Source: Pristiophorus japonicus | Taxonomy: Eukaryota | Direction of reading: 5' to 3' | Assembly (NCBI RefSeq): GCF_044704955.1 | Contig: NC_091992.1 | Coordinates: forward strand, 14,198,001-14,262,000 | Length of the DNA: 64,000 bases | Part shown: in pieces, positions 17,230-48,337 of the stretch | Numbering within the stretch: position 1 is the stretch's first letter | Layout of the letters: each line of letters opens with the position of its first letter | Made by a program: the position numbers and the translations under genes | Notes under the pieces: model-generated | What the model was told of the DNA's origin: nothing | The model's database searches: none | What the model saw: only the letters and a program-made list of their open reading frames with translations

Positions 17230-19282
17230 CTAAGACCGCCCACTGCGCTTGGTCTTGGTGACTCCACCCCTGCCCACAGGCGGTAGCGCAGTGTTTCTCG
17301 GGTTGGTACCAAGCTTATTCTTTTGAACATCTCGAGTAATGCGCACTTCTTGATGGGGGGTTGTGGGTAGGTGGTAATGTGGAAGACCCAGCTTGGGCCT
17401 CTTCAGAGGCTGGTCTGTGGATTGGAATGGGAGTGGCAATTGATTCTGTCTCTGGGCGTGTTACCTTATCGCAGCAGCTAACTCTGACATTCCCTCCCTC
17501 AGTGTCTCAACTACCTCCAACATTCCCTCCCTCATGTGCACCGACATTGTTCCCATTTCTCGTGAGAGTGTTGTTACTTCTCTCAACAGTCCCGATATCT
17601 CATCACCCACCCCCCTGATGGTGTCCACAGAGTAAGTGGAGCTGAGTCCACGGCCAGATCAGCCGTGATCTTGTTGGGTGGCGGAGCAGGCTTGAGAGGC
17701 TAGATGGCCTACTCCTGTTCCTAATTCTTATGTTCTTATGTTCTTATTAATGTTGGGGAAGTCCAGAACCAGGGGTTACAGTCTAAGGATAAGGGGTAAG
17801 CCATTTAGGACCGAGATGAGGAGAAACTTCTTCACCCAGAGAGTGGTGAACCTGTGGAATTCTCTACCACAGAAAGTTGTTGAGGCCAATTCACTAAATA
17901 TATTCAAAAGGAAGTTAGATGTAGTCCTTACTACTAGGGGGATCAAGGGGTATGGCGAGAAAGCAGGAATGGGGTACTGAAGTTGCATGTTCAGCCATGA
18001 TCTCATTGAATGGCGGTGCAGGCTCGAAGGGCCGAATGGCCTACTCCTGCACCTATTTTCTATGTTTCTATGTCCAGGAGCGATCAAGTAAGGTCAATGC
18101 TTTCCGCACTCATTGCCATCATCTGAACCACATCTGTTAGATCCTGCACCTCAGCTTTCCTTCCCCTCCTCATCCTGGGTGTGGCTCGCTGCATCCCACT
18201 GGGACCCGCAGCCTCGGACGGTGGAGCCCTGGGTGTGGCTCGCTGCATCCCACCGGAGTCCCCAGCCTCGGACTGTGAGAAACCATGGAATGTCCCACCA
18301 ACACTCGTACCACTCGGGAAAAGGCCTGGCACCTCAATGGGCGGCACCTGCACCTCCTCCAGAGTGAGTACAACAGTGTGGGCTTGATCCATCACCTCCC
18401 CCTCCCTCTCCCTCTCACCCTCATGCTCTTGGCTGGAAGGTGGGATTGGAAGATGTTCCCCTCTTCAGGCTTGTCCGTGCCTGAATCATCATCTGCATCG
18501 GCTTCAGCCTCGCCAGGGTTGGCCTCAACTTCTGCAAAATATAACAGAACAGACAAATGGTTAGCAGCAGAGGAGGGGGCAGGGTGGGTGGCTTGAGTAG
18601 GCTCACACAGCGCAGGCAGCAGGCTCATTTGAAGGACGACAATGAATGATCGCACATTGCATCAATCGAAGCGTAGCTGACGGAGACATCCCCATGAACC
18701 GAAGCATGGCTAGCCCAAGCAGTACTTAACATTTAGCAAAGCCAGACTGTGGACTTTACAGGACTTACCCTCTCCCTCGAGTGTGAGCCCAGCTTGTGCA
18801 GTGGTGGTTGCTTTTCTCCAGGAAGGACCCATCAGAGCAGCGACCCTGTCTTCCAAGGATGTCAGTGGTGCAGATTTGCCGGGCCTCCTCTTGTTCGAGT
18901 TTTTTCCCTTTTGTTGTGTGCCACCTTCCTCTGCAAAGGTGAAAATATAACTTTATAGAGAGGGTGTCTTTCTGCTGGATGGGACATATACAGATGGTCA
19001 CATTTACAATTGCAATTCCATTGAATAAATGAAAATATTACTTACACTAACTGCTTGACCAAGGTCCTGCCACTTCTTTATGCACTGGCCTCCAGACCCC
19101 GGGGTGGTCACCATTGCACAGTAATCTTCTGCAAGTTGGTTCCAGCGTTTCTTCATTTCTTTTAGTGAAACTTTTATGTGACCTCTGCTGGTGTCCAGCT
19201 TGTGCCATCTGGCCTCAATTACAGTAACCAGTGCCTCCACTTCATCCTGTGAGAAATTCTTGGTTCTTGAGCCACGTTGCAG
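17230..19282 (-). pseudogene. Harbinger Myb/SANT-like DNA-binding protein gene, 3 exons (~19282-19046, 18930-18769, 18531-17230), disrupted
   Basis: NFSQDEVEALV..KKRWNQLAE..QCIKKWQDL trihelix Trp spacing; GTAAGT donors at 19045 and 18768, AG acceptors at 18931 and 18532; RKVAHNKREKTRTRGGP; in-frame 54-bp duplication at 18174-18273. Confidence 0.85.
17628..18070 (+). mobile_element. Chimeric CR1 insertion: two different CR1 3' ends in tandem
   Basis: A single TSD pair tgtcca (17622-27 / 18071-76) encloses a (cttatgtt)n-tailed piece and a (tctatgtt)-tailed piece. Confidence 0.8.
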
Positions 19283-19840
19283 CCTGTATTGCAGCTCCGA
19301 TTTTTCTAATGGGAATGAATGTTCTCACACACAACTGGCTCTTTAAAAATGGCCGAATGCAGACCAGGAGGTGTACTGGGCATGTGCGCCCATAGCAGTC
19401 ACATCAAAAACGCCCTTTTTTTTCTTCGCGCATGCGCAGAAGGGGGGCATCGTTTTTTTGGCACAGACAATAGGCTCCACCCCCCGAAGCTAAAAGATGG
19501 GCTGAATGGCGCCAAAGTCAAAAAATAGAACGGGGAAACTTGCTGGTTATTTTTTTGGAATAATCGGGGCCTAAAAAAAACAGGCGTAACTCTTGCAATA
19601 CGCAAAAAAACGGCATTGGGGAAAATTGAGCCCTTAATCTTTTTACTATTTCACTATTTTTTAGTATCAAGCTTTGCTGAATCGCAGTTTAATAAGTTTG
19701 CTAGACTCTAGTTTTATTTCTCCTTTGTTAGACGTAGCGAAAGGAATGATGTTTAACATGGGTTTTATTTAGAGTTAGAACTCTTCAAGGTCTGTAGGGT
19801 GAGTCCTCGGCTGCAGGAACAGAAACTGAAGGCTGGACTC

Positions 19841-20120
19841 GGGTGGATGTAAAAGATCACATGATACTATTTCAAAGAAGAGCAGGGGAGTTTTCCCATG
19901 GGTTCCTGGCCAATATGTATCCCTCAATCAACATCACTAAAACAGATTATCTGGGTCATTATCACAATACTGTCTGTGGGAGCTTGCTGTGCGCAAATTG
20001 GCTGCCGTGTTTCCTACATTACGACAGTGACTACACTGCAAAAAGTACTTCATTGGCTGTAAAGCGCATTGCGATGTCCGGTGGTCGTGAAGGTGCTATA
20101 GAAATGCAAGTCATTCTTTC
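19841..20120 (+). mobile_element. Deu-domain SINE, 5'-truncated
   Basis: Homologous to 12715-12995. Confidence 0.8.
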
Positions 20121-20667
20121 TAGACTTGCTTGTTGAGGATTTCCTGAAGCTAATTTGAGTCGATTGCAGTTCTGAAAGCCTTCGTGACTAAATTAATTAA
20201 TTTCTTTCTTTCATCTCTGATCGCAAATCGTATCCGGCACCATTCTCAAATTCTGTTTCTATTCACATTAATGATTTGCTGTGAAATAAAGCATGAGATC
20301 AGTGCTACATGGTACAACTACAATTCAGTTCCAATTGCACGATTTGATCACAGGATTTGGCTAGCCTGCTGCAAGTTAAAAAATACACGATACCATCCGA
20401 CATATCCTACTGTGTATACTTTATAGATTATTATGGATTGCGACGTGTTGATGGGTCATAAAGAGATGGCACATCTGTGTTCACATGAGCTACTTTTCTT
20501 TTGCTGTTTGTCAACATGTGATACCCTCTGTGCTACAACCTTGGAACGTACTTCAACCTGTGTTATTTCCTGCAATAACTCAATGTTACAATGTACTGAC
20601 TGCTGAATTATGTAATGTAATCTGTTGCAGAAAAAAAACCTCTGTAATCCTAACAATATATTAACAT

Positions 20668-20802
20668 CTGTTCTGACAAAAGGACACCGACCTGAAACGT
20701 TAACTCTGTTTCTCTCTCCTCAGATGCCTGACTTGCTGAGTACTTCCAGCATATTCTGTTTATATTTCAGATTTCCAGCAAGCACAGTATTTTGCCTTTT
20801 TA
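20668..20802 (+). mobile_element. Penelope-like terminal fragment with a degenerate minimal hammerhead motif
   Basis: ctgacaa-aggacaccgacct-gaaacgtta followed by ..gctgagtacttccagcat..ttcagatttccagca. Confidence 0.55.
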
Positions 20803-20849
20803 ATATATTAACATTTTAATGCTCAAATGGTATTAGTGATTAAAATGAA

Positions 20850-21201
20850 TTCCTCCATGGCCTCACCCCTCCCTATCCTTGTAATCTCCTTCAGCCCCAC
20901 AATCCCCTCGAGATGTCTGCCCTCCTCTAATTCTGCCCTCTTGAGCATCCCTGATTATAATTGCTCAACCACTGGTGGCCGTGCCTTCTGTTGCCTAGAC
21001 CCTAATCTCTGGAATTCCCTCCCTAAACCTCTCTGCCTCTCTTTCCTCCTTTAAGACGCTCCTTAAAACTTACCTCCATCTGCCCCTAATTTCTACTTAT
21101 GTGGCTCGGTGCCTTTTTCTGTCTTAGAATACTCTTGTGTAATGCTTTGGAATGTTTTACTCTGTTTAAAGATGCTATATAAATACAAGTTATTGTTGTT
21201 G
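20850..21201 (+). mobile_element. L2 3' fragment
   Basis: Encodes GGRAF..PNLWNSLP, then gctatataaatacaagttattgttgttg tail. Confidence 0.8.
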
Positions 21202-21477
21202 AGTCTAAACACCCATAAAGACCAAAGGTCTTCCAGACCCCTCCTGGGTGGCATTGGCTTGAAATCACACCCAGGTATCAATTACTTCTCATCAAATGAT
21301 TCCTGTAGTATATTATTTTTGCCACAGAGCCTGCGTAAGGCGAGTCCTCCCCTCCCTCTAAAATAGCCACGAGATTCTACTAGTGTAAGCTTTAACAAGA
21401 AAGTGTTACAAATTCCAAAATATCTTCTTATAGCAAGCCCATATAATTTTAACGGTAATGTGCATTTTAGAGACATT

Positions 21478-21603
21478 GGGCTAGAAATTCATCTCGCAAA
21501 CCACATTGACTGCAGTGAACCTGAATATCAGATGCTGCATAGAACGGGCGGCCAATCCGATACCGCCCACTTTGCACTACTGCACGAGACTAATTTCTAG
21601 GCC
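21478..21603. mobile_element. 126-bp Harbinger-type MITE
   Basis: TIRs gggctagaaatt / aatttctaggcc. Confidence 0.65.
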
Positions 21604-21840
21604 ATGGGCCCTGAAATTCCGTGGGAAGATTGCCGGAACCCCTGGGGAAAGAGCTCAAAACAGCCAATGATCATTTTTCCTGGCAGGAGCCGATTACCGC
21701 ACAGGCCACTGGAGCCTGTACATGGGCCCTGAAATTCCGTGGGAAGATTGCCGGAACCCCTGGGGAAAGAGTTCAAAACAGCCAATGATCATTTTTCCTG
21801 GCAGGAGCCGATTACCGCTCAGGCCACTGGAGCCTGTACA
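21603..21840 (+). repeat. 118-bp tandem duplication starting with a Harbinger-like TIR (gggccctgaaattcc)
   Basis: Units begin at 21603 and 21721 and are nearly identical. Confidence 0.9.
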
Positions 21841-22057
21841 AATATTGGGTTCCCGATAATACTCACTGTGAAGAAGAAAAACTGCTGGATCAAAATATTC
21901 TTCCATTTCGATATACTGACAGGAGGGGGCGCTGTAGAGCCAGCAGATTCGGTGCAGTATAAATGCTGACACCTGTGGTTGCAGTTCACGTTTATGTTTA
22001 AATGGATGGGGGTGGGGGTCGGTGGGGGGGGGGATGTGCTAGGGTTGTTTGTGGAAG

Positions 22058-22465
22058 TTCATAAATGTTCTTGGTGCCCTCAAGCCGCTCGGCATTTAAT
22101 AAGATCGTGGCTGATCTTCGACCCCAACTCCACTTTCCCGCCCGATTCCCATATCCCTTGATTTCCTCTAGAGTCCAAAATCTATCGATCTCAGCCTTGA
22201 ATATATTCAACGACTGAGCATCCACAGCCCTTTGGGGTAGAGAATTCCAAAGATTCACAATCTTCTGAGTGAAGAAATTCCTCCTCATCTCAGACTTAAA
22301 TGGCCGACCCCTTATCCTGAGATGGTGCCGCCTAGTTCTAGACTCTCTAGCCAGGGGAAACATCCTGTCAGCATCTACCCTGCCAATCCCCCTCAAAATC
22401 TTACATGTTTCAATGAGATCACCTCTCATTCTTCTAAACTCCAGAGTATATGATCAACCTACTCA
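22058..22465 (-). mobile_element. CR1 3' fragment
   Basis: MRGDLIETCKILRG..RRNFFTQKIVNLWNSLPQ. Confidence 0.85.
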
Positions 22466-22755
22466 AACCCTGTGGGTTAAAACCTGCCCTTTCACCTCCA
22501 ATGTCTAGTTTCAAATGCCTAGCCGGGTCAATGTCATCTCTGTCGGCGAGATTAGGAAAGGTGACCAGAGCTTGATTGATGAGATGGGTTGGGTGAGTTT
22601 TTAAAAGGTGCTGGGAGAGATGCAGGGGCTGGGGGGACAGATGTCCAGACAGTGGGTCACAGATAGCTGCACGCTCTGCTGCCAACCATGTAAAGGGGTT
22701 TTAACGGTGATGGGACAGAGGTGGACAAGGTTACGGCAGACTCAGTAATGGACAT

Positions 22756-22965
22756 TGTTATGTCTTGAATAGAGTCAGACTGGATACTGCAAGCTCACAG
22801 TAAAGTGGGACTGTAGTCCTTTATTACAGATCTCAGAGTGCCTCTCTAGCCTGTGAGGCCTCCTTATATACAGGTGCTCCCAAGGGATTGTGGGATCCCT
22901 TGGGACTCCAGGGGATAAGCCCTCTAGTGGTTAGACCTGGTATTTACAGGTTTACACACATAACT
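22756..22965 (-). mobile_element. Solo LTR (210 bp)
   Basis: tgtta...taact (terminal CA mutated), TSD gacat/gacat; colinear with 16871-17072. Confidence 0.85.
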
Positions 22966-23806
22966 GACATGATCTGGGGTGTAAAGTACAGCCCTGGGTA
23001 AAACCGGGTGCCAAGACTGAAAATAGTCCAGTTCAGCTTGAGAGAGTGGACAAGGAACAGAAAGATTGTGGTGGGACTGAAGATGAACCTCCCAACTGGA
23101 GGAAGTTGTAACTTGTTTAGAAATTGATGCCAGACTAACAATCTGAAGGTGGGGGGGAGCAGTTCAGTCACAGGGTCGAGAGAAGTGCTGGAGAGGTAGG
23201 GTTGAATATGGTTAATATAGATGTGAAAAATAACCCTGTGCCTGTGGATTAAGTTGCTAAGAGAACTTCGAGACAGGCTGGTGACAAGTGGGAGCCTATC
23301 CCCACAACCATTCCCTCCCCAACTCCCTTCAAAGCTTGGACCAGAATAGAGTTATCAACTCTTGAGAGGTTTCATCACATAACCTTCCACCTCCAACAGT
23401 CCTTCCCAAATAGCTTTCTCCCCCCGCATCTCCAATATGTTTTACAACTAACAAAAGCTTTCAAAGAAAATGAAGACCAAGCAATTTATTGTTAATGCTC
23501 CGATGATTTTTCTCCTGAGTTGTGTATAGCTGTGTCCGGAAGATGCATCTTTAATTCCTGGAGCGTCTAAGACAACAACTACTTGCATTTATATAGCCTC
23601 TTTAACATAGTAAAACATCCCATGATGATTCTCTACCACCTGGAAGGACCAGGACAGCATGCACATGGGAACTCTGCCACCTCCAAGTTCCCCTCCAACT
23701 CACACACCAGCTCGACTTGGAAATATATCACCGTTCCTTCATCATTGCTGGGTCAAAATCCCAGATTTACCTCCCTAACAGCACTGTGGGAGTACTTTAT
23801 CACACA

Positions 23807-24190
23807 GTGTCAGGTGTGGCTCAGTTGGTATCATCCTCACCTCAGAGTCAAAGGTTGTGGGTTCAATTCCCACTCCAGGGACTTGAGCACAAAACTCTAA
23901 GCTGACGCTCTGAGGGAGTGCTGCACTGTCGGAGGTGATGTCTTTTGGATGAGAGGTTAAACCAAGGCCCCGTCTGCTCTCTCAGGTGGATGTAAAAGAT
24001 CCCAAGGCACTATTTTGAAGTTATCCCCGGTGACCTGGCCAATATTTATCCCTCAATCAACATCACTAAAACAGATTATCTGGTCATTGCTGTTTGTGGG
24101 AGTTCTCAGCCACCTTCTCGAGGGCAATTGAGGATGGGCAATAAATACTGGCCTTTCCTGCGATGCCCACATCCCATGAATGAATAAAAA
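23807..24190 (+). mobile_element. Deu-domain SINE 5' part joined to the tail of the second SINE family
   Basis: tRNA head and Deu core to ~24104, then ccaccttctcgagggcaatt..cccacatcccatgaatgaataaaaa. Confidence 0.7.
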
Positions 24191-24194
24191 CTTT

Positions 24195-25116
24195 GGCCCT
24201 GAAATTGCGGTCAGAGGCTTCCTGCGGGCAGATGCCTCCGACTACAAAAATATTTACGAATGTACCCAGTGGTCCCGGAAGAACGAATACTTGCGCTCCG
24301 AGGCCTCGATGGGCAGCCCAGCGTGGAGGCCCACGTATTCCAGGAGCATATGCATATCCTGGGATCACATGGGCCTGGACCACCAATCATAATGTGGTAT
24401 TCTCGTTAATATTCTCGTAATGGAGCTCTGAGCTGCCATTACTATCAATCAGAATGTTATATCTTTAGATGCTCTGATAATGATTCCACGGGGCAATGTG
24501 TTGTACTTGAACTGTAGTGACCTTAGTCCTTTATTGATAACTCCAGAGTGAGGATCACACCTGGTGACCTGCCTTTTATACTAGGCCTGGCACACCTGTA
24601 CAGGTAACCTACAAATCTCCCACTGCGGTGCCCTCTGGTGGCACACCTTGTAATAGTACAAGCAGTAACCATGTAGGATACATGACAGAGAATACCCCTA
24701 AAAACAAATAAAACACAAACATAAATTTAAAAAAAACACAACTTTTTTGAAATGAATAGAAATTGCATTCAATTAAATGTTTTAGAGAAAAAAATTATTT
24801 TATTGAATTTAAAAAAATGTTTTAAAAGTGTTAAAAAATAAACTTACCTTCATAGACAGGGTTTTTAATATAAAAATAACTAATAACATTTATGTTTTCT
24901 ATTAAAACTCTTACGCTGGTAAAAGCAGGCCTTACCAGGCATAAGAGTTTTATGGACATGAGTTGGGCAAATAGCTATTCCTACTCCTGGGGATGTGTTG
25001 AAACTGTGAAAAAAAATGTTGACAGATCGCAAGTGCCGGGTTTAGGCGCATCGCGCACCGAGAATAGGGCGCGTGTGCATATCGTACGCACCCGGAGAGG
25101 CCGAAATTTCAGGACC
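24195..25116. mobile_element. Harbinger-type MITE ending ~300 bp upstream of the TMEM97 ATG
   Basis: TIRs ggccctgaaattgcggtc / ggccgaaatttcaggacc (15/18). Confidence 0.75.
24455..24687 (-). mobile_element. Solo LTR (233 bp) nested in the MITE
   Basis: tgtta...tgaca, TSD cagaa/gagaa; shares gtgaccttagtcctttatt..ctccagagtg with the other LTRs. Confidence 0.8.
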
Positions 25117-25299
25117 AATTCTCAACCAACATTTGCCAGATCCTGCAGTGCTGGAACCACCGCAGTGCAGAATCTGTCAGCCTGGGCTGAGCAAACCTTC
25201 CCATTGCACACCTGGATAGGGCTGAGGCTACACTTGATCACTTTAGGGAAGACTCTGACGTTTATTGAGCACAAAGCGAGTCTGTCAATCTTCCTGTGA

Positions 25300-25409
25300 G
25301 TGCAGGGTTGGTCGCTCCGCGTTACTCCGCCTTCAGTATGCTAACCAATCGCTTGAGGAGCTGCGAGTGGCGACACTTTGTGCACCAATCCCCAATCCTT
25401 CAGCCCGCC
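25300..25409 (+). promoter_or_regulatory. TMEM97 proximal promoter / 5' UTR, CpG-rich with CCAAT boxes
   Basis: ccaat at 25345, 25385 and 25392; raised CpG from ~25300 to 25760. Confidence 0.5.
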
Positions 25410-25529
25410 ATGGCGTCCTGCATGCGGCTGCTGGAGTGGGTCTTCTTCTTTTACTTCTTCACACACATTCCCATTACTTTGGCCATCGACTTGCAGGCTC
25501 TGCTACCCGAGTGGCTGTACCCGCCCGCA
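25410..25529 (+). CDS. TMEM97: TMEM97 (sigma-2 receptor, EXPERA domain) coding exon 1
   Basis: Kozak gccATGg; MASCMRLLEWVFFFYFFTHIPITLAIDLQALLPEWLYPPA; donor gtgagt, phase 0. Confidence 0.95.
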
Positions 25530-25878
25530 GTGAGTGTTTGCAACCATTGAGACAAGGCGACTGCATTTAGGGTTACCGCAACCCCTGTTCCAGCTCCCGG
25601 TCCCCGCTGGAGCGCGGCTCGATGCTGCACTACCGCTGAACAGCGAAAGTAGGAAGGCGAGAGTTCGGGAGGATCTCTGTCTCTTGCTGTGAGCCGCACC
25701 CCGGAGTTTGTAGCTCCGATATCCTTCTGAATCATGTCGGGATGAGTTGTTGCGCCAGAACCTCCCAGAAATCATTAACCTCAGTCGCATATTGAAGCAT
25801 AAGCAAGTGTACCGGCTGTTGCACCGATTCCCATTAAACTACTTCAAATTGTACAGGTTCTTATTGAACCCTGATTCC

Positions 25879-26176
25879 TGTTATATATGCAGCCTATAGA
25901 TATATGTGTAGTCACTGTATAGTTGCATAAGATGGAGACTTGTTTACCTGATGTACTATCAATAAGGTTTACAATGTGTATATACTATGCTGGCACCACG
26001 AGAGGGTGCAACTGGTGGAGACCGGAGTTTCCTGCCCTGGTGGCAGGGGCTGTATTAAAGGGTAGCCACCATGCGGCTGCCTCACTCTGGAGTTACGAAT
26101 AAAGGACCAAGGTCACTACAGTTTGAGTACAACATATTGTCTCGTGAAGTCATTCATAAGTGCTTTACAGACAACA
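25879..26176 (+). mobile_element. Solo LTR (298 bp) in TMEM97 intron 1
   Basis: tgtta...caaca, TSD attcc/attcc, AATAAA at 26098; reverse-complement similarity to 24455-24687. Confidence 0.85.
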
Positions 26177-27070
26177 ATTCCCATTGTACAGATTCTTATT
26201 TAACCAGTTCCCATTGTGCAGGTTCATATTGGACTGGTTAACATTACACAGGGAGTGTTTGCCAGTATCACTGGGCTGCAGCGCTATGTATTGTGCTGTG
26301 CAAATCCACCAAGCTCCAAGCCACCAGTCTGGGATCTGGTCGGCAAACACTTGGGGGTCTGTCCCAATGGCCAATATTAGGAGTTCTGGGTTTAGCTCAA
26401 GCCTGTCTTGCACATTTAGATACTGTGCGGTAAACCATCCAGCAAACCCACAGCTCCTGTGAAGGACTGGTTGTATGATATCTCTCGTGTTGCTTTCATA
26501 CCATACAGTCTGCCCCTGATATTTCAATGTCGATTCTTGTTTTTGAATTATCCCGTAATTGAGATTAAGGAACTGGAGTAAAACAACAATTCGGGATGTT
26601 TTAATGCAATTCAAATCATTCATTCATTCGAATTAAGCGACAGGGAGTTATCGGAACTAAACCGTTTGACACTTTCAGTGATGCTGTAACACCCAACGCA
26701 GCATCGAAGGTAGAGTTTAAAATGGGCAGATGATTATCAATGTTGGGAAGGTACCTAAAGAAGGTGCTTTTACACAACTGTTGATGCAAGGTCTGTGCAG
26801 GCGGCAACATTGGGAAATGTAAACTTATACAGCCAATGGCAACAGCGACCTCTGTGGATCCATTGTCAGAACTAAGACTTTCCTCAATTACCACAAATGA
26901 TCAGGGGCGGGGTCAGCCTGTTTCCATTGCGATCACCAGTGCATGATCAGGTGACCTTAGAGCACGATCACATAGTGTTCACCAATTTGCACAACATAGA
27001 ATAAATCAACATTTAATACACGCATACATTTTTAGTTTGACTGGGCAACTTGTTTTGCCTCCCTCCTGTT

Positions 27071-27492
27071 CCTAAGGAAACTCGCACACACTCGCACTGC
27101 ACAGTATCTAAGGAAACTCCTTCACACTCACTGCACAGTTTCTAAGGAAACTCCTTCACACTTGCACTGCACAGTATCCAAGGAAACTCGTGCACACTCG
27201 CACTGCACAGTATCTAAGGAAATCCCTTCGCACACTCACTGCACAGTATCTAAGGAAACTCCTTCACATTCACACTGCACAGTATCTAAGGAAACTCCTT
27301 CACACTTGCTGCACAGTATTTAAGGAAATCCCTTCACACACTTACTGCACTGTAAGGAAACTCCTTCACACTCTCACTGCACAGTATCTAAGGAAACTCG
27401 CGCACACTCGTACTGCACCGTATCTAAGGAAACTCCTTCACACTCACTGCACAGTAAGGAAACTCACGCACACTCGCACTGCACAGTATCTA
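27071..27492 (+). repeat. Minisatellite, ~35-bp unit, about 12 copies
   Basis: Unit ctaaggaaactccttcacactcactgcacagtat with variants. Confidence 0.95.
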
Positions 27493-27614
27493 ATGATACA
27501 TTAATACCCAGTATTGACTCTGAATGTGGAACACAGAAGAAAGGCTTTGATTGTAGTTGAACAAACTTTTAAAAATGTTAAATTTATTTTTAAATGCTAT
27601 ATTTCTTTCCACAG

Positions 27615-34178: not shown

Positions 34179-35241
34179 TCGGTGTCTTTGAGTGTTTCCC
34201 CGTTCTTGGCCAGCAGTGGACTGCGGCCTTGGGTGTTTGGGCCGTAGGTGGCCTTGACTGCGATGAAGAATCCTCGCACGTCATGGCTGTCGGCCAGCTG
34301 CTGTATCTTCTGTGCTTTCTCCATCCACCACCTGTTCTTTAGGTCCCAGGTTTTTTTGTTGGACTTCAGTCTTGAGCCATCTCTAATGCTGCTTTGCTGC
34401 TCCCGAGTTGAGTTGTTAAGGCTCAGAAATGCCCTGTACTTGCGATCTATTAGCTCATGGATCTCCTGATCGTTCTCATTGAACCAGTCCTAGAGATCCA
34501 ACACCGCCTCCTGTGCACCAGCACAACCTGAGGAAATGAGTGTTTGGAGAACAGGCCCTCAAAACTGCCACCAAGCTCATGGTCTACAGGGCTGTAGTGA
34601 TACCCGCCCCCCTGTATGGCTCAGAAACATGGACCATGTACAGTAGACACCTCAAGTCGCTGGAGAAATACCACCAACTATGTCGCCGCAAGATCCTACA
34701 AATCCCCTGGGAGGACAGACACACCAACATTAGCATCCTCGACCAGGCCAACATCCCCAGCATTGAAGCACTGAGCACACTTAATCCGCTCCGATGGGCA
34801 GGCCACATAGTTCGTATGCCAGACAAGAGACTCCCAAAGCAAGCGCTCTACTTGGAACTGCTTCACGGCAAACGAGCCAAAGGTGGGCAGTGGAAACGTT
34901 ACAAGGACACCCTCAAAGCCTCCCTGATAAAGTGCAACATCCCCATCAACACCTGGGAGACCCTGGCCAAAGACCGCTCTAAGTGGAGGAAGTGCATCCA
35001 GGTGGGCGCTGAGCACCTCGAGTCTCATCGCCGAGAGCATGCAGAAATCAAGCGCAGGTTGCGGAAAGAGCGTGCGGCAAACCAGTCCCACCCACCCCTT
35101 CTCTCAACGGTTATCTGCCCCACCTGTGACAGAGACTGTGCTTCTCGAATTGGACTGTACAGCCACCTAAGGACTCCTTTAAGAGTGGAAGCAAGTCTTC
35201 CTCGATTCCGAGGGACTGCCTATGCTGCTGATGATGATGAT
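34179..35241 (+). mobile_element. RTE LINE with an inverted 5' segment (34179-34491 minus, 34493-35241 plus)
   Basis: Plus part: TKLMVYRAVVIP..LRWAGHIVRM..CPTCDR with (gat)n tail. Minus part encodes DWFNENDQEI..WWMEKAQKIQ, from upstream of the RT domain. Confidence 0.85.
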
Positions 35242-36718: not shown

Positions 36719-36800
36719 TTATTTCTGAAGAATGAACTGATCAATGAATTCATTTTGTTCGGCTTCTACTTTTGATAGTGCGTCATACTCGATCCGGTAC
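36719..36800 (-). CDS. IFT20: IFT20 coding exon 4 to stop (total 132 aa)
   Basis: Acceptor ttttacag; [26 protein letters not shown]; 127+86+104+82=399 nt. Confidence 0.96.
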
Positions 36801-37769: not shown

Positions 37770-38145
37770 AAACTCATCATTCTCATGTTCAAATCCCTCA
37801 ATGAACTTGCTCCTCCCCATCTCTGTAAACTCCTACAACCCTCCGAGAACTCTGTTTATACCACTCTGACCTGTTTCGCATCCCCCCACTTCCTTTGCCC
37901 CACCACTGGTGGCCGTGCCTTCTGCCCTCTAGGCCTCAAGCTGTGGAATTCCATCCCTAAACACCTCTACCTCTCCCCCCTCCTTTAAGACGCTCCTTAA
38001 AACCTACCTCTTTGACCAAGTGTTTGGTCAGCTGCCCTAATGTCTCCTTTGGCACGGTGTCAATTTTTGTCTGTTTACACTCCTGTGAAGCACCTTGGGA
38101 CATTTTATTACGTTAAAGGTGCTATATAAATGCAAGTTGTTGTTG
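37770..38145 (+). mobile_element. L2 3' fragment
   Basis: GGRAF..KLWNSIP and tail gctatataaatgcaagttgttgttg. Confidence 0.8.
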
Positions 38146-38785
38146 AAACTTGTTAGGATTTCTTTACAGATGGTTGCAAAAATTAGATTTTAAAAAAAAT
38201 AAAAAATAAATATATTTAATTCTAAATTGGAGAAGCCAAGAAAAGTGGCTCAGTTTGCTGTAACCCCTCCAAGCCATTCAGACTGAAGGAAGCAAAAGAA
38301 AGTTAGGCTGGTGGAAGTCACAACCAAACCTGCTGTTGGCACTTCTGAGCGATTAGTTTGAGAGCCAGAGACCGAGGAATGACCATCCATCAGAATGATG
38401 TAGCAATCGTAAAATGGATGAGATTTTGATTTATATATATTTTTTTTAAATACAACCAGCCATACACCTTGCACGTTTGCATTCTTTAGCCTTGCCGGTG
38501 TGCGAGAGTACCTTAGGCTGATGCAGCTTGTGTAGACCAAGTTCCTTATTGTTTGTATATGGCTTAAGTCACAAATGAACAGTTTAGCTTACTTACTCAT
38601 CTCCTTAGTTGAGCAATAGCATTACAATATATAAAATACATGATGGACATTTAATACTAAAATAATAGTAACAGCAGAAAGATGGCTTCATTTAATGGTA
38701 CTATTAACGATGGCTTCATGCAAGTCATTGCAATATTGCTCAATTCTCGCTTTGTATTGGTAAAAGATACAAGATTTCTACCAAC

Positions 38786-38889
38786 CTTTCCAGCTGCATT
38801 TTCTTTTCAGCTATTAAAGCTTGGAGCTGCTGTTGTTGTGCTTCTCTTTGTTTAGCAACTGATTTCAGAAGATTTCTAGCACCTATGGC
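38786..38889 (-). CDS. IFT20: IFT20 coding exon 3 (104 nt)
   Basis: [35 protein letters not shown]; acceptor cttcag, donor gttggt. Confidence 0.96.
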
Positions 38890-39447
38890 CTGAAGATAGC
38901 AACAGAATTAATCTTTTGTTCTATGAAACTTTTAATAATCCCCAGAGCCAGTTACTTTCTCTCGCTGTAGTAGATTCCCCCATGATGGGCAGCATTTTTA
39001 TTCCCCAACCACATAGTACAGGTTTCTCTAAAATCGTGGTCTAGTGTGCAAACAAGTGGGTCAATTCCATAACTCGTCATTTAGAAGAATTTTACACCCC
39101 AAGACAACAAGGTGGACTTTACCCGTTAGTTATTTATTACAGAGCAAACTATTTTGTAATCAACCTCCATAGGTAATTACTACAATCCACGTTATCTCAA
39201 AAACACCACTTGATCCCAGTTCCTTCATTTTCTGTTTGGGGAATGCATCATACACGGCTCGTACATTCCTACACCGGATCAAACTACCATACGGTGTCAT
39301 TCCTGCTGTCAGACCGTTCAAAGGTTCATAAAGATGAAACGTAACCATTTGACGTAGTAAAGAGAAGTTGATAGCACCACCATTTCCCTTAGTGTTAAAG
39401 TACCTACGACACACAAAATGTCAGTATTGTATCGAGAGGAACATTAC

Positions 39448-39533
39448 CTTCATCTTTTCGTTCTCAGCTTCTTTAGCAAGCTGATCGACTAGTTCAATTA
39501 AACCACCAACAATTTTCTGGAACTGGCCTATTT
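39448..39533 (-). CDS. IFT20: IFT20 coding exon 2 (86 nt)
   Basis: [28 protein letters not shown]; acceptor ctttcag, donor gtaatg. Confidence 0.96.
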
Positions 39534-39594
39534 CTGAAAGAAAAGATTTTAAAAATTGTGAAATTACACATCATAACCACACCAGAAGATAATT

Positions 39595-40598
39595 GGCTCA
39601 GTGCTGGGACCCCAGCTCTTTACAATATACATTAACAATTTAGATGAAGAAATTGAGTGTAATATTTCCAAGTTTGCAGATGACACTAAATTGGTGGCGG
39701 TGTGAGCTGTGAGGTCAACGCTAAGAGGCTGCAGGGTGACTTGGACAGGTTAGGTGAGTGGGAAAATGCATGGCAGATGCAGTATAATGTGGATAAATGT
39801 GAGGTTATACATTTTGGGGGCAAAAACACGAAGGCAGAATATTATCTGAATGGCGGCAGATTAGAAAAAGAGGTGCAACGAGACCTGGGTGTCATGGTTC
39901 ATCAGTCACTGAAAGTGGGCATGCAGGTACATCAGGTGGTGGAGAAGGCAAATGGTATGTTGGCCTTCATAGCTAGGGGATTTGAGTATAGGAGCAGGGA
40001 GTTCTTACTGCAGTTGTACAGGGCCTTGGTGAGGCCTCATCTGGAATATTGTGTTCAGTTTTGGTCTCCTAATCTGAGGAAGGACGTTCTTGCTATTGAG
40101 GGAGTGCAGTGAAGGTTCACCAGACTGATTCCAGGGATGGCTGGGACTGACATATGAGGAGAGATTGGATCAACTGGGCCTTTATTCACTGGAGTTTAGA
40201 AGGATGAGAGGGGATCTTATAGAAACGTATAAAATTCTGACGGGACTGGACAGGTTAGATGCGGGAAGAATGTTCGCGATGTTAGGGAAGTCCAGAACCA
40301 GGGTACATAGTCTTAGGATAAGGGGTAGGCCATTTAGGACTGAGATGAGGAGAAACTTCTTCACTCAGAGAGTTGTTAACTTGTGGAATTCCCTGCCGCA
40401 GAGAGTTGTTGATGCCAGTTCATTGGATATATTCAAGAGGGAGTTAGATATGGTCTTACGGCTAAGGGGATCAAGGGGTATGGAGAGAAAGCAGGAAAGG
40501 GGTACTGAGGGAATGATCAGCCATGATCTTATTGAATGGCGGTGCAGGCTCGAAGGGCCGAATGGCCTACTCCTGCATCTATTTTCTGTGTTTCTATG
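39595..40598 (+). mobile_element. CR1 LINE 3' ~1 kb
   Basis: KFADDTK, WQMQYNVDKCEVIHFG, LVRPHLEYCVQFWSP, RRNFFTQR and tail. Confidence 0.92.
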
Positions 40599-41282
40599 AC
40601 ACGCTAATACGTGACTTGTTCGTCAACCGCTAGAATCTGAATGAGTGAGAATTCAACTTTTGCTTCAACAAGGTAAGCCTCTTGATATTGTCTAAAAAGT
40701 GCACCTAACCTCCCACCCTCCATGAGACATCCACTATCCAAGTCTAACACCACTCGCGAGTCCCACCCATTGAATTGTTATCCTTGTTCCTTTACATTGT
40801 CTTGGCCCAGCTATACTGGCCAAATCTCTGGATACCATGTTGTGTCCAAATTATGCTGCACCTGCAATGCATGATGACTAGGTTTTACACAATGGTCTCA
40901 TCAATTTTTTTTTTAAGTTGGAATCAAAGATGACAATAATCGAGTGCAAGACTACCATCTAATGCAGTCTCACTCACTGCAATGAAAGCAAGACTGTGCT
41001 GCCACTCTATAATCCAAATGTGTCGTATTTACCAACATAGCAACATGAATCTTGCACTAAACCTGGAGTATAATGGTACTCAATTCATCATGCATCTTTT
41101 TCAGCACAATGTTCTTACCTGAAACTATTTCAAGATTTTTAAATAAGGTTTATTGTTTAATGCTCTCCAATAATTGATACCCTGGTACAGAATTCATGAT
41201 GAGTTACAACAGGAAAAAAAATACACTTTGTCATCAGTAAGGCATCCTGAAAAATCCAAATTCAGCTGCTGGAAGGTTTTGG

Positions 41283-42506
41283 AAACATAAAAATTTACAG
41301 CGCAAAAGGAGGCCATTTCAGCCCATCATGTCCACGCCGGCCAATAAAGAGCCGCACGGCCCTCGGTCATGACACCACTGTTCCTAATTCTTATGTTCTT
41401 ATGGTCAGCAGCCCTGAAGGTTACATATAAACCAATGAACAATGGCGGAAAGGCAAAGAGCACCCAGCCCAACCAGTCCGCCTCAAACTGCAACACTTTA
41501 CACAGAAACATTCTACACTCCATCCCAACCGGAGCCATGGGATCTTCTGGGAGAGGCAAAAGCTAGATAAAAGCCCAGGCCAATTGGGCGTAAAGAAGCC
41601 CCCCCCAAATCCCCTCTAATCCTTCCACCAACCACCTTAAAACTATGCCCCCTTGTAATAGACCTCTCAACCAATGGAAATAGGCCCTGACTATCCTCTA
41701 TGTCCAGACCCCTCAATATTTTGTACACCTCAATGAGAACAAACCCAGCCTATCTAATCTGTCCTCATAACTAAGATTCTCCATTCCAGGCAGCATCCTA
41801 GTAAATCTCTTCTGCATCCTCTCTAGTGCAATCACATTCTTCCTATAGTATGGCGACCAGAATGCACGCAGTGCTCCAGCTGTGGCCTAACCAAAGTATT
41901 GTACAATTTAAGCATAACCTCCCTGCTCTTATATTCTATGCCTCGGCCAATAAAGGCAAGCATTCTGTATGCCTTCTTAACCACCTTATCCACCTGGCCT
42001 GCAACTTTCAGGGTTCTGTGGACAATCACTCCAAGGTCCCTTTGTTCATCTACACTAGTAAGTGGCCTACCGCTTAATATGTATACCCTTTCCTTATTAG
42101 CCCTCCCAAAGTGCATTAACTCACACTTTTCTGAATTAAATTCCATTTGCCTCTGCTCTGCCCACCTGACCAGTAGATTGATATCCTCCTGCAGCCCACG
42201 ACTTTCCTCTTCATTATCAACCACACAGCCAATTTTAGTGTCGTCTGTAAACTTCTTAATCATACTCCCTATATGCAAATCTAAATCGTTAATATATACT
42301 ACAAAAAGCAAGGGACGCTGTCCTGAGCCATGCGGAACCGCACTGGAAACATCCTTCCAGTCACAAAAACATCCATCAACCATTACCCTTTGCTTCCTGC
42401 CTCCAAGCCAATTTTGGATCCAACTTGGCACTTTGCCCTGGATCCCATGGGCTTTAACCTTCGTGACCAATCTACCATGTGGGACCTTATCAAAAGTGTT
42501 CCTGAA
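41283..42506 (-). mobile_element. Composite CR1: RT region (41589-42506) joined to a different 3' segment (41283-41588)
   Basis: KFTDDTKIG, MEFNSEKCELMHFG, LVRPQLEHCV; ORF2 homology stops abruptly at ~41589. Confidence 0.8.
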
Positions 42507-43439
42507 AGTTTGATTTATGGTTTATAAATTCTCGTCAGCCAATTTCAAAAGGATGTTTGTTTTTCAGCTCTGTTGGGAAATGAAGCGAGCCTCACAGAAA
42601 TATTTCTCTTGGGGCCGGAGTATCAGCCGCAAATGAGAGAAGAGGTTTTCACCATACCTGTCTAGACTGCCTCTGAGCGCAGGCAAAACAATCAAACATC
42701 CTTCCCGTGTTTCACTCCCATCACAGGTGGGAGCAAAACACAGAACGGATGTGGTTTGATTGTCAGAGAGTTTGTGCCGTTGGTCTTAATGTTAACATTA
42801 AATAATGCAGAAAACCTCATTTGGGTTACCAATTCACACAATGTCTTTTTCCTAATACAGGAAGAGCACTGTTTAAAGCATACCATTTTTTAATGATTAA
42901 AAAGTTAATTCTAACACTGGAAGCAAGTAACACTTTACAGAAGAGCATTTCCAACACTATATACAAAGCCTCCTCTGCTGGTCTACATTTTACATTCGAT
43001 CCGACTGTTCCCCGTCATTAATTAAAATGTACTTTTTACACAGTAAGCTATTCTTCAATTGTGTCATAGACCACAGACAGTATTTCAAGCTCAGATTGAC
43101 AAACTCTCATCATAGTTGCCTGTTTTTCTAGTTAATCTAATTATAGTTAACCTCTGAATATTTGTATTATTTGGCATTTGTTCAATCGTTAATGCAGCAT
43201 CTATCCTCTCACTGTTTTGAACCCATTCAATAAAGCTGACATTTTAGATGTTGCAAAAACATGTCAAGTTTAGATCCAGGCCTGATTCTATTTGTTTTAC
43301 AGGGGACAGCATTATCTTGGACAAGTAGTTACAAAAGCCGATATTTGCTTTTATAAGTTTGTGAGGGAATCAGTGCTGGAAACATTTTTATTAATTGGAA
43401 GTCACTGGATCAACATCCTTGGTGAGACTGAATCAGAGG

Positions 43440-44034
43440 AAAGGGTCTCCTAGTCGGCCTGCCAACCTTTACCCAATACAAACTCCAACTCATTAGAACC
43501 TCACCAGCCATGTGCTATTCCATACAAAGTCCTGCTCATCAATCACCCTGACCTCACCAATCTCCAATGGCCCCCTGTTTGCAATGTATTGATTTCAAAA
43601 TCTTTAACCTCATTTAAAAAGCTCTCCATGGCCTCACTCCACCCTACCTCGGTAACCTTCCCAACTCACGCACTCCACTCTTCCAACTTGGACCCACTGT
43701 GCATCCCCCTTCCCTCCACTCCAGAATTCTCTTCCATAATTTAACAACCCTCCAAGAACTCTGCGTTCCTCCAACTGTGGCTTTGTGTGCACATACCACT
43801 CTTTGCCCACCACTGGCGAATATGCCTTCAGGCATCTAGGCCTTTAATCTCAGGAATTGTCTCGCTAAACCTCTCCACATCTCTTGTACTCCTTTAAGAC
43901 CCTCCTTAAAACCTACCCCTTTGACCAAGCTTTTAGTAACCCCTCCAAGCATCTGCTTCTTTGGCTCAGTGGCAATTTTTGTCTGAAGACACTTCTGTGA
44001 AGTGCCTTAGAATGTTTACTATGTTAAAGGGCTA
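43440..44034 (+). mobile_element. Old L2 3' fragment
   Basis: ctccaatggccccctgt..tcaaaatc, ctccatggcctc, aaaacctacccctttgaccaagc. Confidence 0.7.
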
Positions 44035-45036
44035 TCACTCCTACTGATTGAGGTTTGGCAGCTAATATTTTATAAGAGAGTGCAAATTCCATTCTAAGTT
44101 TCACGTAACACTGATGCTGCAGTCAGTTGAGTGGGGACTGAGGAGAGGAGTCCTTACTTTTGGTTTAGAAGACTCCACACATTATAGAATCATAGAATGG
44201 TTACAGCACGGAAGGCGGCCATTTGGCCCGTCGAGCCCGTGCTGGCTCTCTGGAAGGACACTTCAGCTAGTCCCACTACCTCGCCTTTTCCCCGTAAATC
44301 TCCTGATTTACCATATAGACAGTCTGCAGACACCATTCTTGGTGAGCCAATGGCTATGGTAGTTAGAGCACAGAAGGAGACCATTCAGCCCATCATGTCT
44401 ATGCCAACTCTTTGTTCAAGCAGTTTAAAACTATTCCCACTGCTTTGCTCTCTCCAAAGTTTTGCATTCACAAGATAATTACGGATAAGCAAAACCATTC
44501 AGCACCCTTATTCCATCCACCCAGAAAGACTCTACAGTCCCCTCATTGCAGCATCTAGTTGTTTCTTAAATGATCCCAAGCTGTTTCCCCTACTCTAGCA
44601 TTGATCATTGTACTGAATGTGAAGAACTTCCTAAATTTATCTTTGATCCTGTGTTTTTGTACTACTGTCCTAAATTAATTTAAATATTCTAGATATACCT
44701 TTTTCATTCTCTTAACTACCATATAACTCAATATCATCTCACAGACTCTGAAAAGTCCAGGATTTCCTCATGAAGTCCCAGACTTTTGACACCAGGTCTT
44801 GTGGCCCTTTGCATTGCCTCCAGCACTTGAATGTCTCAGTGACCAGAAGTGGAAGCAGCACAGAAGATGGGAACTGAGCAGAGTTCACCAGACCGGCATC
44901 CAACTTTATTTTGAAAGCCCCTTTTGGGTGCACCCCTACCACTCTGAAAAATTGTTTCAGACATTCATCACTCTTTGCAAGAAGAATTTCTTTTGGTATC
45001 TACTCCATTAGTGCCCAGAGCAGTTTATACTTCTAG

Positions 45037-45626
45037 GTATCAACCGTGGCTCAATGGGCAGCACTCCTGTCTCCAAGTCAGAAAGTTTGTGGTTCAAGTC
45101 CCACTCCAGAAACTTGGAACACATCATCTCGACTGACACTCCAGCGCAGCGGAGTGCTGACTGTCAGAGCAAGAATGACTTGCATTTATATAGCACCTTT
45201 CACAACTACCAGACATCCCAAAACGTTGTATCGCCAATGAAGTATTTTTGAAGTGTGGTCACTTGGAAATGCAGCAGCCAATTTGCGCACAGCAAGCTCC
45301 CACAATCAGCAATGTGACAATGACCAGATAATGTGTTTTGGTGATGTTAGTTGAGGGATAAATATTGGCCAGGACACCAGGGCTAACTCCCCCTGCTGTA
45401 TTTCAAAATAATGCCGATGTCCACCGGAGAGAATAATTTAATATCTCATCTGAAAGACGCCACCTCTGACCGTGCAGCACTCCCTCGGCACTGCACTGGG
45501 ACTGTCAGCCTGGATTTCTAAGCTCAAGTTTCTGGAGTGGGACTTGAAGCCACAACCTTCTGACCACTGAGCCACAGCTGACGTCTTTCGGATGAGATGT
45601 TACACTATATAAATGCAAGTCTTTCT
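45037..45626. mobile_element. Minus-strand Deu-SINE (~45170-45581) nested inside a plus-strand, internally deleted Deu-SINE
   Basis: Plus head at 45037-45169, a full minus copy, then plus gtctttcggatgagatgtta..ctatataaatgcaagtctttct. Confidence 0.75.
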
Positions 45627-45676
45627 GACACCCCCAGCCCATATGGTGACCAACCTCCCTACCTCCCCGGACCTAC

Positions 45677-45803
45677 TTTCGACAAAGTCCTTGCACTCCT
45701 CTTTCAGCTCGGTTGTATTTTGTGCCACCTCCGGATCCAAGACCCTGAGTTTGCTGAGCTCGTCAAAGTGCAGGCCGGCCTCCCCCAGCGCCTCCATTGC
45801 CAT
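45677..45803 (-). CDS. IFT20: IFT20 (intraflagellar transport 20) coding exon 1 (127 nt)
   Basis: [42 protein letters not shown]; donor gtaggt, phase 1. Confidence 0.96.
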
Positions 45804-45862
45804 CAGACCGAGCTGACTCCTCACCCCCGCTCTCTCCTCTCCTCTCCTCTCCTCCTCCCTCC

Positions 45863-46170
45863 GGCAACCGCTGCCACGGCGACCGAGCCCCAGACACCAC
45901 GTACGGCGTCGGCGTCAGTGTCACACATGAGCGCATGCGCCGCTGGAACTGTCAATCATTTAGCGCACGGGGGGGGGGGGGGGCGGGGTTAGAGCCCGGG
46001 CGCCTCGACTGCGCATGCCCGACTGGAACCGTTAATCACTCCGCGCACGGGGGGCGGGGTTAGAGGCCAAACGCCACGGACTGCGCATGCCCGACTGGAA
46101 CTGTCAATCACTCCACGCACGGGGGGGGGCGGAGTTAGAAGCCGGGCGCCTCGCACTGCGCATGCTCAGT
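45863..46170 (-). promoter_or_regulatory. IFT20 CpG-island promoter with RFX X-box and a triplicated ~75-bp module
   Basis: GTCGCCGTGGCAGC (minus, 45870-83); GCGCATGC at 45931, 46011, 46083 and 46158; TGATTGACAG (minus) at 45949 and 46101; GC boxes. Confidence 0.8.
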
Positions 46171-46821
46171 ACCTTACATGTAATATAACCTGTAAAAATT
46201 ATGTGTATTGACCCAATGCAAGTGCAGACAAGCAAAGGCTGTGTCATCGCATCTATGTTCTTCTCAATCTTCCTCGCTGCAATGCTTCATCTCACCCTTA
46301 ACGAGCTCTCCGCTGGAGTGGAGTTAATCTGCAGGACAAGCGGGAAATTGTTCAACCTTCTACGCCTCCAGTCTAGATCCAACGTTGCTCCAACCTCTGT
46401 CATTGCATTACAATATACAGACGGCGCTTGCATTTATGCACACTCGGAGTCCAAACTCCAAACCATCGTTGACACCTTCACTGAAGCGTATGAGAGTCTG
46501 GGCCTTACATTAAACATCAGTAAGACAAAGGTCCTCTACCAACCTGCCCCCACCACACAGCACTGCTCCCCGGTTACAAAAGCTCCACGATGAGACCTTG
46601 GAAAATGTGGACCACTTCCCATACCTTGGGAGCCTACTATCAGCAAGGGCAGACATCGATGACTAAGTCCAACACCAATTTCTGTGCGCCAGTGCAGCCT
46701 TCGGCCATCTGAGGAAGAGAGTGTTCGAACACCAGGATCTCAAATCCGGCACCAAGTTCATGGGTTACAGAACAATAGTGATACGCCCTCCTATATGATT
46801 CAGAGCCATGAATTATGTACA

Positions 46822-48337
46822 TCATCATCATAGGCAGTCCCTCGTAATTAAGGAAGACTTGCTTCCACTCCTAAAGTGAGTCCTTTGGTGGGACAGACAT
46901 TCGTTGGGGAAGGGGGGGGTGGGACTGATTTGCCACATGCTCCTTCCGCTGCCTGGCAGTGTGGGCTGTGGGGGGGACGCTAGGGGGCTGCAGGGTGGCT
47001 TGGACAGGTTGGGTGAATGGGCAGATGCGTGGCAGATGCAGTGTAGTGTGGATGGGTGTGAGGTTATCCACTTTGGGGGCAAAAACACGGAGGCAGAATA
47101 TTATCTGAATGGCGGCAGATTGGGGGGGGGTGGTGCAGCGAGACAAGGGTGTCGTGGGGCATCAGTCATTGGGGATTGAAGAAGGCAAATGGTATGTTGG
47201 CCTTCATAGCTAGGGGAGGGATTTGAGTATAGGAGCAGGGAGGTCTTACTGCAGTTGTACAGGTCCTTAGTGAGGCCTCACCTGGAATATTGTGTTCATT
47301 TTTAGTCTCCTAATCTGAGGAAGGATGTTCTTGCTATTGAGGGAGTGCAGCGAAGGTTCACCAGACTGATTCCCGGGATGGCAGGACTGACATATGAGGA
47401 GAGACTGGATCAACTGGGCCTGTATTCACTGGAGTTTAGAAGGATGAGAGGGGATCTTATAGAAACGTATAAAATTCTGACGGGACTGGACAGGTTAGAT
47501 GCAGGAAGAATGTTCCTGATGTTGGGGAAGTCCAGAACCAGGGGACATAATCTAAGGATAAGGGGTAAGCCATTTAGGACTGAGATGAGGAGAAACTTCT
47601 TCACTCAGTGAGTTGTTAACCTGTGGAATTCCCTACCGCAGAGAGTTGTTGATGCCAGTTCATTGGATATATTCAAGAGGGAGTTAGATATGGCCCTTAC
47701 GGCTAAAGGGATCAAGGGGTATGGAGAGAAAGCAGGAAAGGGGTACTGAGGCGAATGATCAGCCATGATCTTATTGAATGGTGATGCAGGCTCGAAGGGC
47801 CGAATGGCCTACTCCTGCACCTATTTTCTATGTTTCTATGCCTGCGCCTGACCTCTTCATGCTTGTGGCGTTGAGATTCGAAGAGCTCAACGCCCTCCCA
47901 GATGCACTGTCTCCACCTAGGGCGGTCTTCGGCCAGGGACTCTCAGGTGTCAGTGGTGATGTCGCAATTTACCAGGGAGGCTTTGAGGGTGACCTTGTAA
48001 CATTGTCGCTGCCCACCTTTGGCTCGTTTGCCGTGAAGGAGCTCTGCATAGAGCAATTGCTTAGGGAGCCTCATGTCTGGCATGCGAACAATGTGGCCTG
48101 TCCAGCGAAGCTGATCGAGTGTGGTCAGTGCTTCAATGCTGGGGATGTTAGCCTGGGCAAGGACACTGATGTTGGTGCACCTGTCCTCCCAGGAAATTTG
48201 CAGGATCTTGCGGAGATATTGTTGGTGATATATCTCCAGCGACTTGAGGTGTCTTCTGTACATCATCCATGCCTCTGATCCATACAGGAGGGCGGGTATT
48301 ACTACAGCCCTGTAGACCATGAGCTTGGTGGTAGATT
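46822..48337 (-). mobile_element. Younger RTE LINE inserted antisense into the older RTE, itself split by CR1
   Basis: (tca)n tail at 46822; TSD tgtaca (46816-21 / 48338-43); KSTTKLMVYRAVVIPALLYGSE. Confidence 0.85.
46956..47838 (+). mobile_element. CR1 3' fragment with an A->G hypermutated 5' portion
   Basis: TSD tgcctg (46950-55 / 47839-44); colinear with 39700-40598. Confidence 0.9.

Follow-up and report, generated by a model that had tools for sequence, protein, structure and literature searches.

A-to-G hypermutated LINE copies in Pristiophorus japonicus as a probable record of ADAR-edited RNA in genomic DNA

Hyper-editing by the RNA deaminase ADAR that has been fixed by reverse transcription is reported for Rous-associated virus as well as avian leukosis virus (PMC12925331). 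In these avian retroviruses the clustered A-to-G changes affect up to about half of the adenosines, are linked to an inverted repeat and are fixed by reverse transcription, much as appears to be the case in the elements described here, which are long interspersed nuclear elements (LINEs) of Pristiophorus japonicus. The material is a 64-kb stretch of contig C16 (NC_091992.1, positions 14,198,001 to 14,262,000; hereafter the window) of the 5.9-Gb genome, together with related copies from the same genome. Three spots in the window had been flagged as edited in an earlier note, and all three are pieces of retrotransposons lacking long terminal repeats (non-LTR). Unlike the avian retroviruses, the present case concerns non-LTR elements, in which the changes are fixed in the germline, many independent events are found and edited copies seem to multiply.

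Inverted pairs of Alu elements (PMC3197674, PMC4365171) have the neighbour motif and the inverted-repeat substrate in common with the present case; however, the change in Alu is made in RNA only, whereas here it is found in genomic DNA. APOBEC DNA editing has left fossils in LTR retrotransposons (PMC4866542), and there too the clusters made by a deaminase are archived in vertebrate genomes and are found by the comparison of copies. Those fossils, in contrast, are G-to-A changes made on DNA in LTR elements, and the main text of that paper does not use the term ‘ADAR’ and treats non-LTR restriction as independent of deaminases. The restriction of LINE-1 by ADAR1 and ADAR2 is reported to be independent of editing (PMC8535693, PMC12925331). 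ADAR would meet LINE RNA in both cases, but here the edits themselves seem to be recorded in new copies, which does not show that they serve in defence. A CR1 survey (PMC13343379) makes no use of the word ‘editing’ in its main text. A literature search that covered titles and the openings of abstracts, in a library with few subscription journals, returned no description of an adenosine-to-inosine tract fixed in genomic LINE copies.

Each flagged spot (sites 1 to 3) was set against roughly 29 true relatives, drawn from elsewhere in this genome, and not against the diverged copies in the window. Family Y denotes the LINE family of site 1, and family X the internal part of a chimeric element at site 2. 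These elements are taken, following the earlier note, to be of the CR1 type, and a further LINE fragment at site 1 is presumed to be RTE-like. CR1 elements are defined by 5' truncation, an 8-bp repeat tail, a short target-site duplication and the lack of long terminal repeats. All these traits are present in the elements studied, and their open reading frame 2 (ORF2) encodes an APE-type endonuclease (Exo_endo_phos(_2)) and then RVT_1 in the long chimeric copies, and RVT_1 in family Y.

The earlier note had described an edited 5' part joined to an unedited 3' part at all three sites, an arrangement that is borne out at site 1 (46956-47840) and fails at the other two, as site 3 is unedited and site 2 is not a local editing event. 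The features of site 1 are as follows.

46956..47176, + strand: 5' part of a 5'-truncated CR1-type LINE (family Y), within the reverse transcriptase (RT) coding region, A-to-G hypermutated up to the 5' end
47176..47177, + strand: copy-specific deletion of 23 nucleotides (nt) where the edited tract ends on its 3' side; each missing base is present in 24-30 of 30 relatives
47177..47840, + strand: 3' part, unedited and closed by the 8-bp repeat tail; identity with 29 relatives is about 96%
47214..47217, + strand: 4-nt insertion private to this copy, about 40 nt past the deletion
46951..46955, + strand: left copy of a target-site duplication of 4-5 nt, the right copy being 47840-47844
46820..48339 (46820-46955 and 47841-48339), - strand: RTE-like LINE fragment hosting the insertion, from self-comparison with 34560-35233

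With the column majority of 29 copies of its own family and one window copy as reference, 23 of 61 adenosines have changed to G in 46964-47174 and 1 of 178 in 47177-47838 (Fisher p 1e-14). As the target-site duplication brackets the whole insert, the edited and unedited parts belong to one insertion. The deletion at 47176, which had been given as about 20 nt, is real and was most likely incidental or a rare local slip. Site 1 is the sole A>G cluster called in the 14.8 kb of scorable sequence in the window, so that the three events previously counted in 64 kb come down to one, and its 14 changes per 150 nt compare with a window maximum of 7 for the other mismatch classes. One might suppose that no process is at work and that subfamily variation or assembly error has produced such patterns. 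Subfamily variation does fully account for site 3 and for the window's copy of site 2. At site 1, however, the other 29 family Y copies have 0-2 G out of 33-64 in these columns, the edited pattern has only two sense matches and one antisense match genome-wide, and 46989-47075 is matched mismatch-free by an 87-nt short-read contig (from a run that may be the assembly's own sample), which makes this supposition barely credible. Among the matches listed for two other samples (X5, X6) there was no long contig across the edited stretch, which is evidence in neither direction.

A-to-G hypermutated LINE copies with the ADAR preference, mostly in sense orientation and with a spared 3' end, are present genome-wide, which supports part of the earlier interpretation. 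There are 48 independent events, mostly on the sense strand, with tracts of less than 100 to about 1,200 nt. They were found with edited-state patterns, each of which forces 3-5 G at T-A sites per event, and the clusters at these targeted loci consist to 70% or more of A>G. Copies with shared patterns were merged in the count, which includes one event without scorable sites, and 43 sense events entered the junction test. Two low-identity tracts of L175 (subfamily artefacts), L186 (no cluster, 73% identity) and duplicate loci were removed before counting, and the pair L154/L177, which has many private non-A/G changes in common, was handled as a DNA duplication and not as a sub-lineage.

The pooled edited share, with the window excluded, depends on the 5' neighbour (T 0.70, A 0.60, C 0.34, G 0.20) and on the 3' neighbour (G 0.48, A 0.45, C 0.35, T 0.34). 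ADAR targets are reported to be depleted of G on the 5' side and enriched for it on the 3' side (PMC3197674, PMC4365171); hence the order T>A>C>G and the 3' G fit ADAR. The APOBEC signature, clusters of G-to-A on the sense strand, differs from the sense-strand A-to-G changes found here. Regarding the strand, the edited-state pattern of the Y-type tail has 58 sense matches, most of them sub-lineage members, and 2 antisense matches, and the pattern of the family Y coding end has 25 sense and 16 antisense matches. A cluster was called in 24/25 of these sense hits at the coding end versus 4/12 of the antisense hits that were fetched from the 16; strand specificity is thus strong, though not absolute. 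The RTE-like family, for which sense matches only were examined, has 2 edited-state matches, each with 5/7 A changed, versus 15,465 native ones. A generic G-rich pattern independent of any family gave 2 matches, as did its control, and is uninformative.

These copies are rare. At the family Y site there are 25 edited versus 27,345 native matches, and 2/7 independently found events hold all three G that the pattern requires; with this correction, the edited share of family Y at that site is crudely put at about 0.3%, which would amount to something like a thousand copies. A sample of 132 evenly spaced 10-kb loci (1.32 Mb; L099-L150, L223-L302), with 498 kb of scorable repeat DNA and 89 Y-like matches, contained no A>G or T>C cluster. 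In the same loci, clusters of C>T (9) and of G>A (5) were called, which probably stem from CpG decay. The idea that this genome routinely archives edited RNA is not sustained by these figures. The commonest TA-rich 26-mers of the evenly spaced loci come from a repeat that matches none of the five reference elements and is possibly a minisatellite.

The most probable reading, to which a probability of roughly 0.8 may be given, is that double-stranded LINE RNA was edited by ADAR and was copied into germline DNA by ordinary target-primed reverse transcription, with template jumping as at most a minor route; at site 1 this reading calls for no switch from one RNA to another. A LINE RNA would pair with an antisense copy, which may be an inverted neighbour in the same transcript, as the arms of locus L221 suggest, or another RNA. 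ADAR, the probable enzyme in view of the neighbour preference, would convert paired adenosines to inosine at the observed rate of about 30-70%. The LINE protein would then prime on the 3' tail, which is nearly unedited in the copies, presumably through selection for a tail that it can recognise. Inosine would be copied as G and early stops would set the 5' end, which the tracts often reach, and these stops may reflect stalling or RNA cleavage. Where the edits lie in a non-coding tail, as in the site 2 chimera, the copy may stay active and found a sub-lineage, to which the shared patterns point.

In L221 an antisense and a sense arm both carry A>G on one strand (59 T/C and 54 G/A of 132 inter-arm differences), and the spacer of 59 nt between them is 32% A, versus 11% and 16% in the arms; as the spacer has no homolog, this A share is all that can be read from it. 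The inverted pair is the clearest sign of what would be a double-strand-specific RNA deaminase. A rival reading is error-prone DNA synthesis: during synthesis of the first or second strand, G would be paired with T, or C with A, through a polymerase of low fidelity or unbalanced nucleotide pools. This too would produce A>G on the insertion-collinear strand, irrespective of how a segment is oriented, and site 1 by itself lacks the neighbour bias of ADAR. However, the pooled order T>A>C>G, the A-rich spacer of L221 and the repeated independent tracts in one 200-nt stretch of the chimera tail fit an RNA deaminase and not a polymerase, so that polymerase error is very improbable. In L218 and L220, which have one edit pattern in common, the antisense arm is edited (31/41 and 65/97, that is 67-76% of A) and the matching sense arm on the same insert is unedited. 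At L185 an edited antisense part of 1.2 kb adjoins a sense part that is unedited, and at L182 an edited antisense piece of 72 nt adjoins a sense copy with an internal tract of its own. The arms of L218/L220, L185 and L182 may record possible template switches in a minority of insertions; junctions that were already in the source, such as a nested inverted copy or a 5' inversion, with pairing in trans, also fit.

Two observations on antisense pieces may be added. Those of L218 (1652/1653), L220 (1160-1653) and L221 (977/982) lie near the same place in family Y (reference 758, 777), and such near-identical positions in independent cases possibly mark an insertion hot spot. L214 has a 250-nt antisense-edited piece (1455-1720) with no adjoining sense LINE 3' end on the edited strand.

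Several points weigh against editing by ADAR followed by ordinary reverse transcription. The case is read from genomic DNA, and the editing of LINE transcripts is thereby deduced rather than observed in RNA. Site 1 alone does not avoid a 5' G (5/16 edited after G versus 12/36 otherwise, a small sample) and is the only scored event without the ADAR neighbour trend, while the pooled figure for 5' T is somewhat inflated, as the search patterns force 3-5 T-A sites per event. A simple hairpin does not explain the editing of one arm in L218/L220, and a source locus with a pairing partner was found neither for site 1 nor for the chimera.

The chimera is represented in the window by site 2.

17632..17748, + strand: segment from LINE family X (its 3' end with the tail) that is internal in the amplified chimera; a sub-lineage is distinguished by G at 17665, 17677 and 17678
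17749..18072, + strand: appended piece of 320 nt, the 3' end of a Y-type family, which does not code for protein in the chimera; it is unedited in the window copy and hypermutated in some relatives

The fusion of tail to body reported at about 17747 is real, but it is common to 29/29 fetched relatives and its junction has 1,227 exact matches in the genome. No A>G in the 5' part is private to the window copy, and near the junction the three A/G positions alone (17665, 17677, 17678) differ from 8 non-chimeric relatives. An unselected sample, the first 40 junction matches on contig C1 picked by the junction alone, comprised 20 chimeras with A at all three positions, 14 with G at all three, 4 with two G, 1 with one G and 1 unscored. 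As 20/40 have A throughout, the fusion is older than these G variants, and site 2 was rejected as a local event. The family joins the 3' tail of one element to a 3' fragment of another, as would result from a jump to an RNA end, and so resembles the template-jump chimeras reported for non-LTR elements (R2 jumping, chimeras of Magnaporthe); alternatively, a truncated copy may have been inserted at the tail of a source element, and editing is not needed for the fusion.

The chimeric LINE measures about 4.4 kb and carries a 37-bp minisatellite at the 5' end. Its RT frame stops 107 nt before the junction in 6/8 long copies, and hence the appended 320 nt are non-coding. The chimera stands out as a hot spot of editing: in the 40 unselected copies, heavy editing is seen in 2 tails, with 26 and 39 A>G, and moderate editing in 3, with 8-10 A>G beside 6-11 other changes. 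These edited tails (2-5/40) all differ in pattern, and the remaining copies have 0-4 A>G, apart from two unscorable ones (L322 and L336), which still count towards the 40. In this family editing is mostly found 3' of the junction, a polarity opposite to that of the earlier note. Two groups of pattern-selected copies (8 and 9) have common edit patterns on an all-or-none basis, with differing flanks and truncation points, and partly share an altered number of tail repeats. The simplest reading is that two edited chimera copies became source elements, as they would seem to have been, for sub-lineages. Two members of these, L158 and L180, have a second edited tract further 5'. No inverted repeat that could form a duplex was found within the chimeric element in 8 long copies, and the 3' stem-loop, folded once with the three G and once with A in their place, took on differing local structures; the z-scores were about -0.5 in both, and the folds were not used.

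L095 has, some 45 nt upstream of a full-length chimera, an inverted Y-type copy (2133-3239; 93% identity with the tail) that is a candidate duplex partner; such a neighbour is expected by chance in about one quarter of such sets at the observed density. The G-run made by editing near position 1626 of the oriented loci L157, L166, L168 and L179 is longer by 2-11 nt within one sub-lineage, as expected from slippage on a new homopolymer. L167 (G000:C5:16812823-16815847) has the tail pattern of a sub-lineage, yet all three site 2 positions read A, whereas each of the seven sisters that were scored has two or three G there. It possibly reflects a scarless exchange between chimeric RNAs, with a polarity opposite to that first described.

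Site 3 is a single copy of a third CR1-type family.

41590..42510, - strand: 5' part of the copy, unedited, with a G-run native to the family
41280..41589, - strand: remaining 3' part of this copy, beyond an internal deletion of 272 nt

The switch of sequence noted at about 41589 is a real discontinuity at 41589/41590, namely this 272-nt internal deletion. The A-to-G editing said to adjoin it is absent: sense A>G is 1 among 45 substitutions over about 920 nt, relative to 29 relatives, and the G-run is present in 5/5 displayed relatives. Site 3 was therefore rejected as edited. The copy also bears a 38-nt insert at about 41370-41407 with an X-type tail in the opposite orientation.

Under the architecture proposed as general, RT would start on an intact RNA and then switch to a hyper-edited one that had been cleaved, with a junction at the 3' edge of the tract as a rule. 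Template jumping is possible for non-LTR RTs (PMC8857657, PMC2104539), RNA with inosine is reported to be cleaved by human ENDOV (PMC3741635), the deletion of site 1 lies exactly at the 3' edge with small ones at L174 and L208, and an edited antisense 5' piece is joined to a sense 3' part at L218/L220, L185 and L182. However, when junctions were scored as an indel of at least 4 nt or a break in the interval from -15 to +30 nt around the last edit, only these three (3/43: site 1, L174, L208) were obtained and 40/43 sense events had none. The background is 38/1,344 in family loci (2.8%, p 0.12) and 43/641 in evenly spaced loci (6.7%). Junctions are not enriched at the 3' edge, and their rate is no more than background. 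Furthermore, site 3 is unedited, the fusion of site 2 predates its G variants, the edited part of the chimera is usually on the wrong side of the junction, and the junctions of L185 and L218/L220 fit structures pre-existing in the source (5' inversion, nested inverted copy) that bound a duplex. A jump as the rule is therefore unlikely, and the breaks beside the tracts are no evidence for the cleavage-and-jump route. Rarity, lack of strand specificity and independence from junctions had been named in advance as signs that would speak against the earlier inference; the clusters are indeed rare, and junctions are no commoner at their 3' edge than in the background, but their strand specificity is strong.

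A recurrent feature is a polarity that leaves no scar. The edited share sinks to 0.09, 0.08 and 0/88 in the last 120 nt, but towards the 5' side it remains 0.19-0.37 (p 0.02 in a paired test of 15 copies). The 5' end of the copy lies within 35 nt of the first edit in 17/43 events, and 5' truncation ends number 20 per 14.9 kb in edited copies versus 35 per 67.2 kb in controls, about 2.6 times the rate, later insertions being counted as ends in edited copies and controls alike. This excess is compatible with stalling in the duplex, with the cleavage of inosine RNA and with source copies that were short.

A seamless tract may also be compatible with a homologous template switch, which leaves no scar. 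In a scarless exchange, edited RNA or complementary DNA would overwrite part of an unedited copy, either by homologous copy choice while reverse transcription proceeds or by gene conversion once the copy is inserted, and this can accompany editing with ordinary reverse transcription. The tracts of 26/43 sense events have no 5' end at their edge and are largely internal, one arm alone is edited in L218/L220, and L167 combines an edited tail with unedited site 2 positions. Nevertheless, editing limited to a duplex likewise yields internal tracts, and the excess of 5' ends at tract edges together with the sense bias ties most events to the insertion itself. Scarless exchange is thus improbable as an explanation in its own right, slightly more so than a jump as the rule.

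A wider claim, which we hold only a little more readily than its opposite, is that ADAR acts as a heritable mutagen of LINEs that founds lineages. There would be about a thousand edited copies, the chimera with its spare non-coding tail would be edited tens-fold oftener than its relatives, edited sources would be edited again, and a minority of copies (the L218/L220 type and possibly site 1) would record a switch of RT from unedited to edited template.

Other features of the window touch these subjects less directly. Opposite-orientation RTE-like pieces in 47841-49029 meet at 48338/48339 and resemble a 5' inversion, and a short CR1-type tail is inserted within them at 48562-48654. Self-comparison of the window also shows tandem arrays at 27068-27499 (units of about 70-75 bp), 45931-46165 (70-80 bp) and 21603-21840 (118 bp).

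These LINEs make visible a step that has been assumed, in which RNA edits are written back to germline DNA. The edited copies would be a datable record of the double-stranded retroelement RNAs of the germline and of the preference of ADAR in a species that lacks RNA data, and they point to the portion of the 3' tail that retrotransposition needs intact. It is suggested that editing is not simply a defence, as edited copies appear to go on multiplying where ORF2 has escaped the edits.

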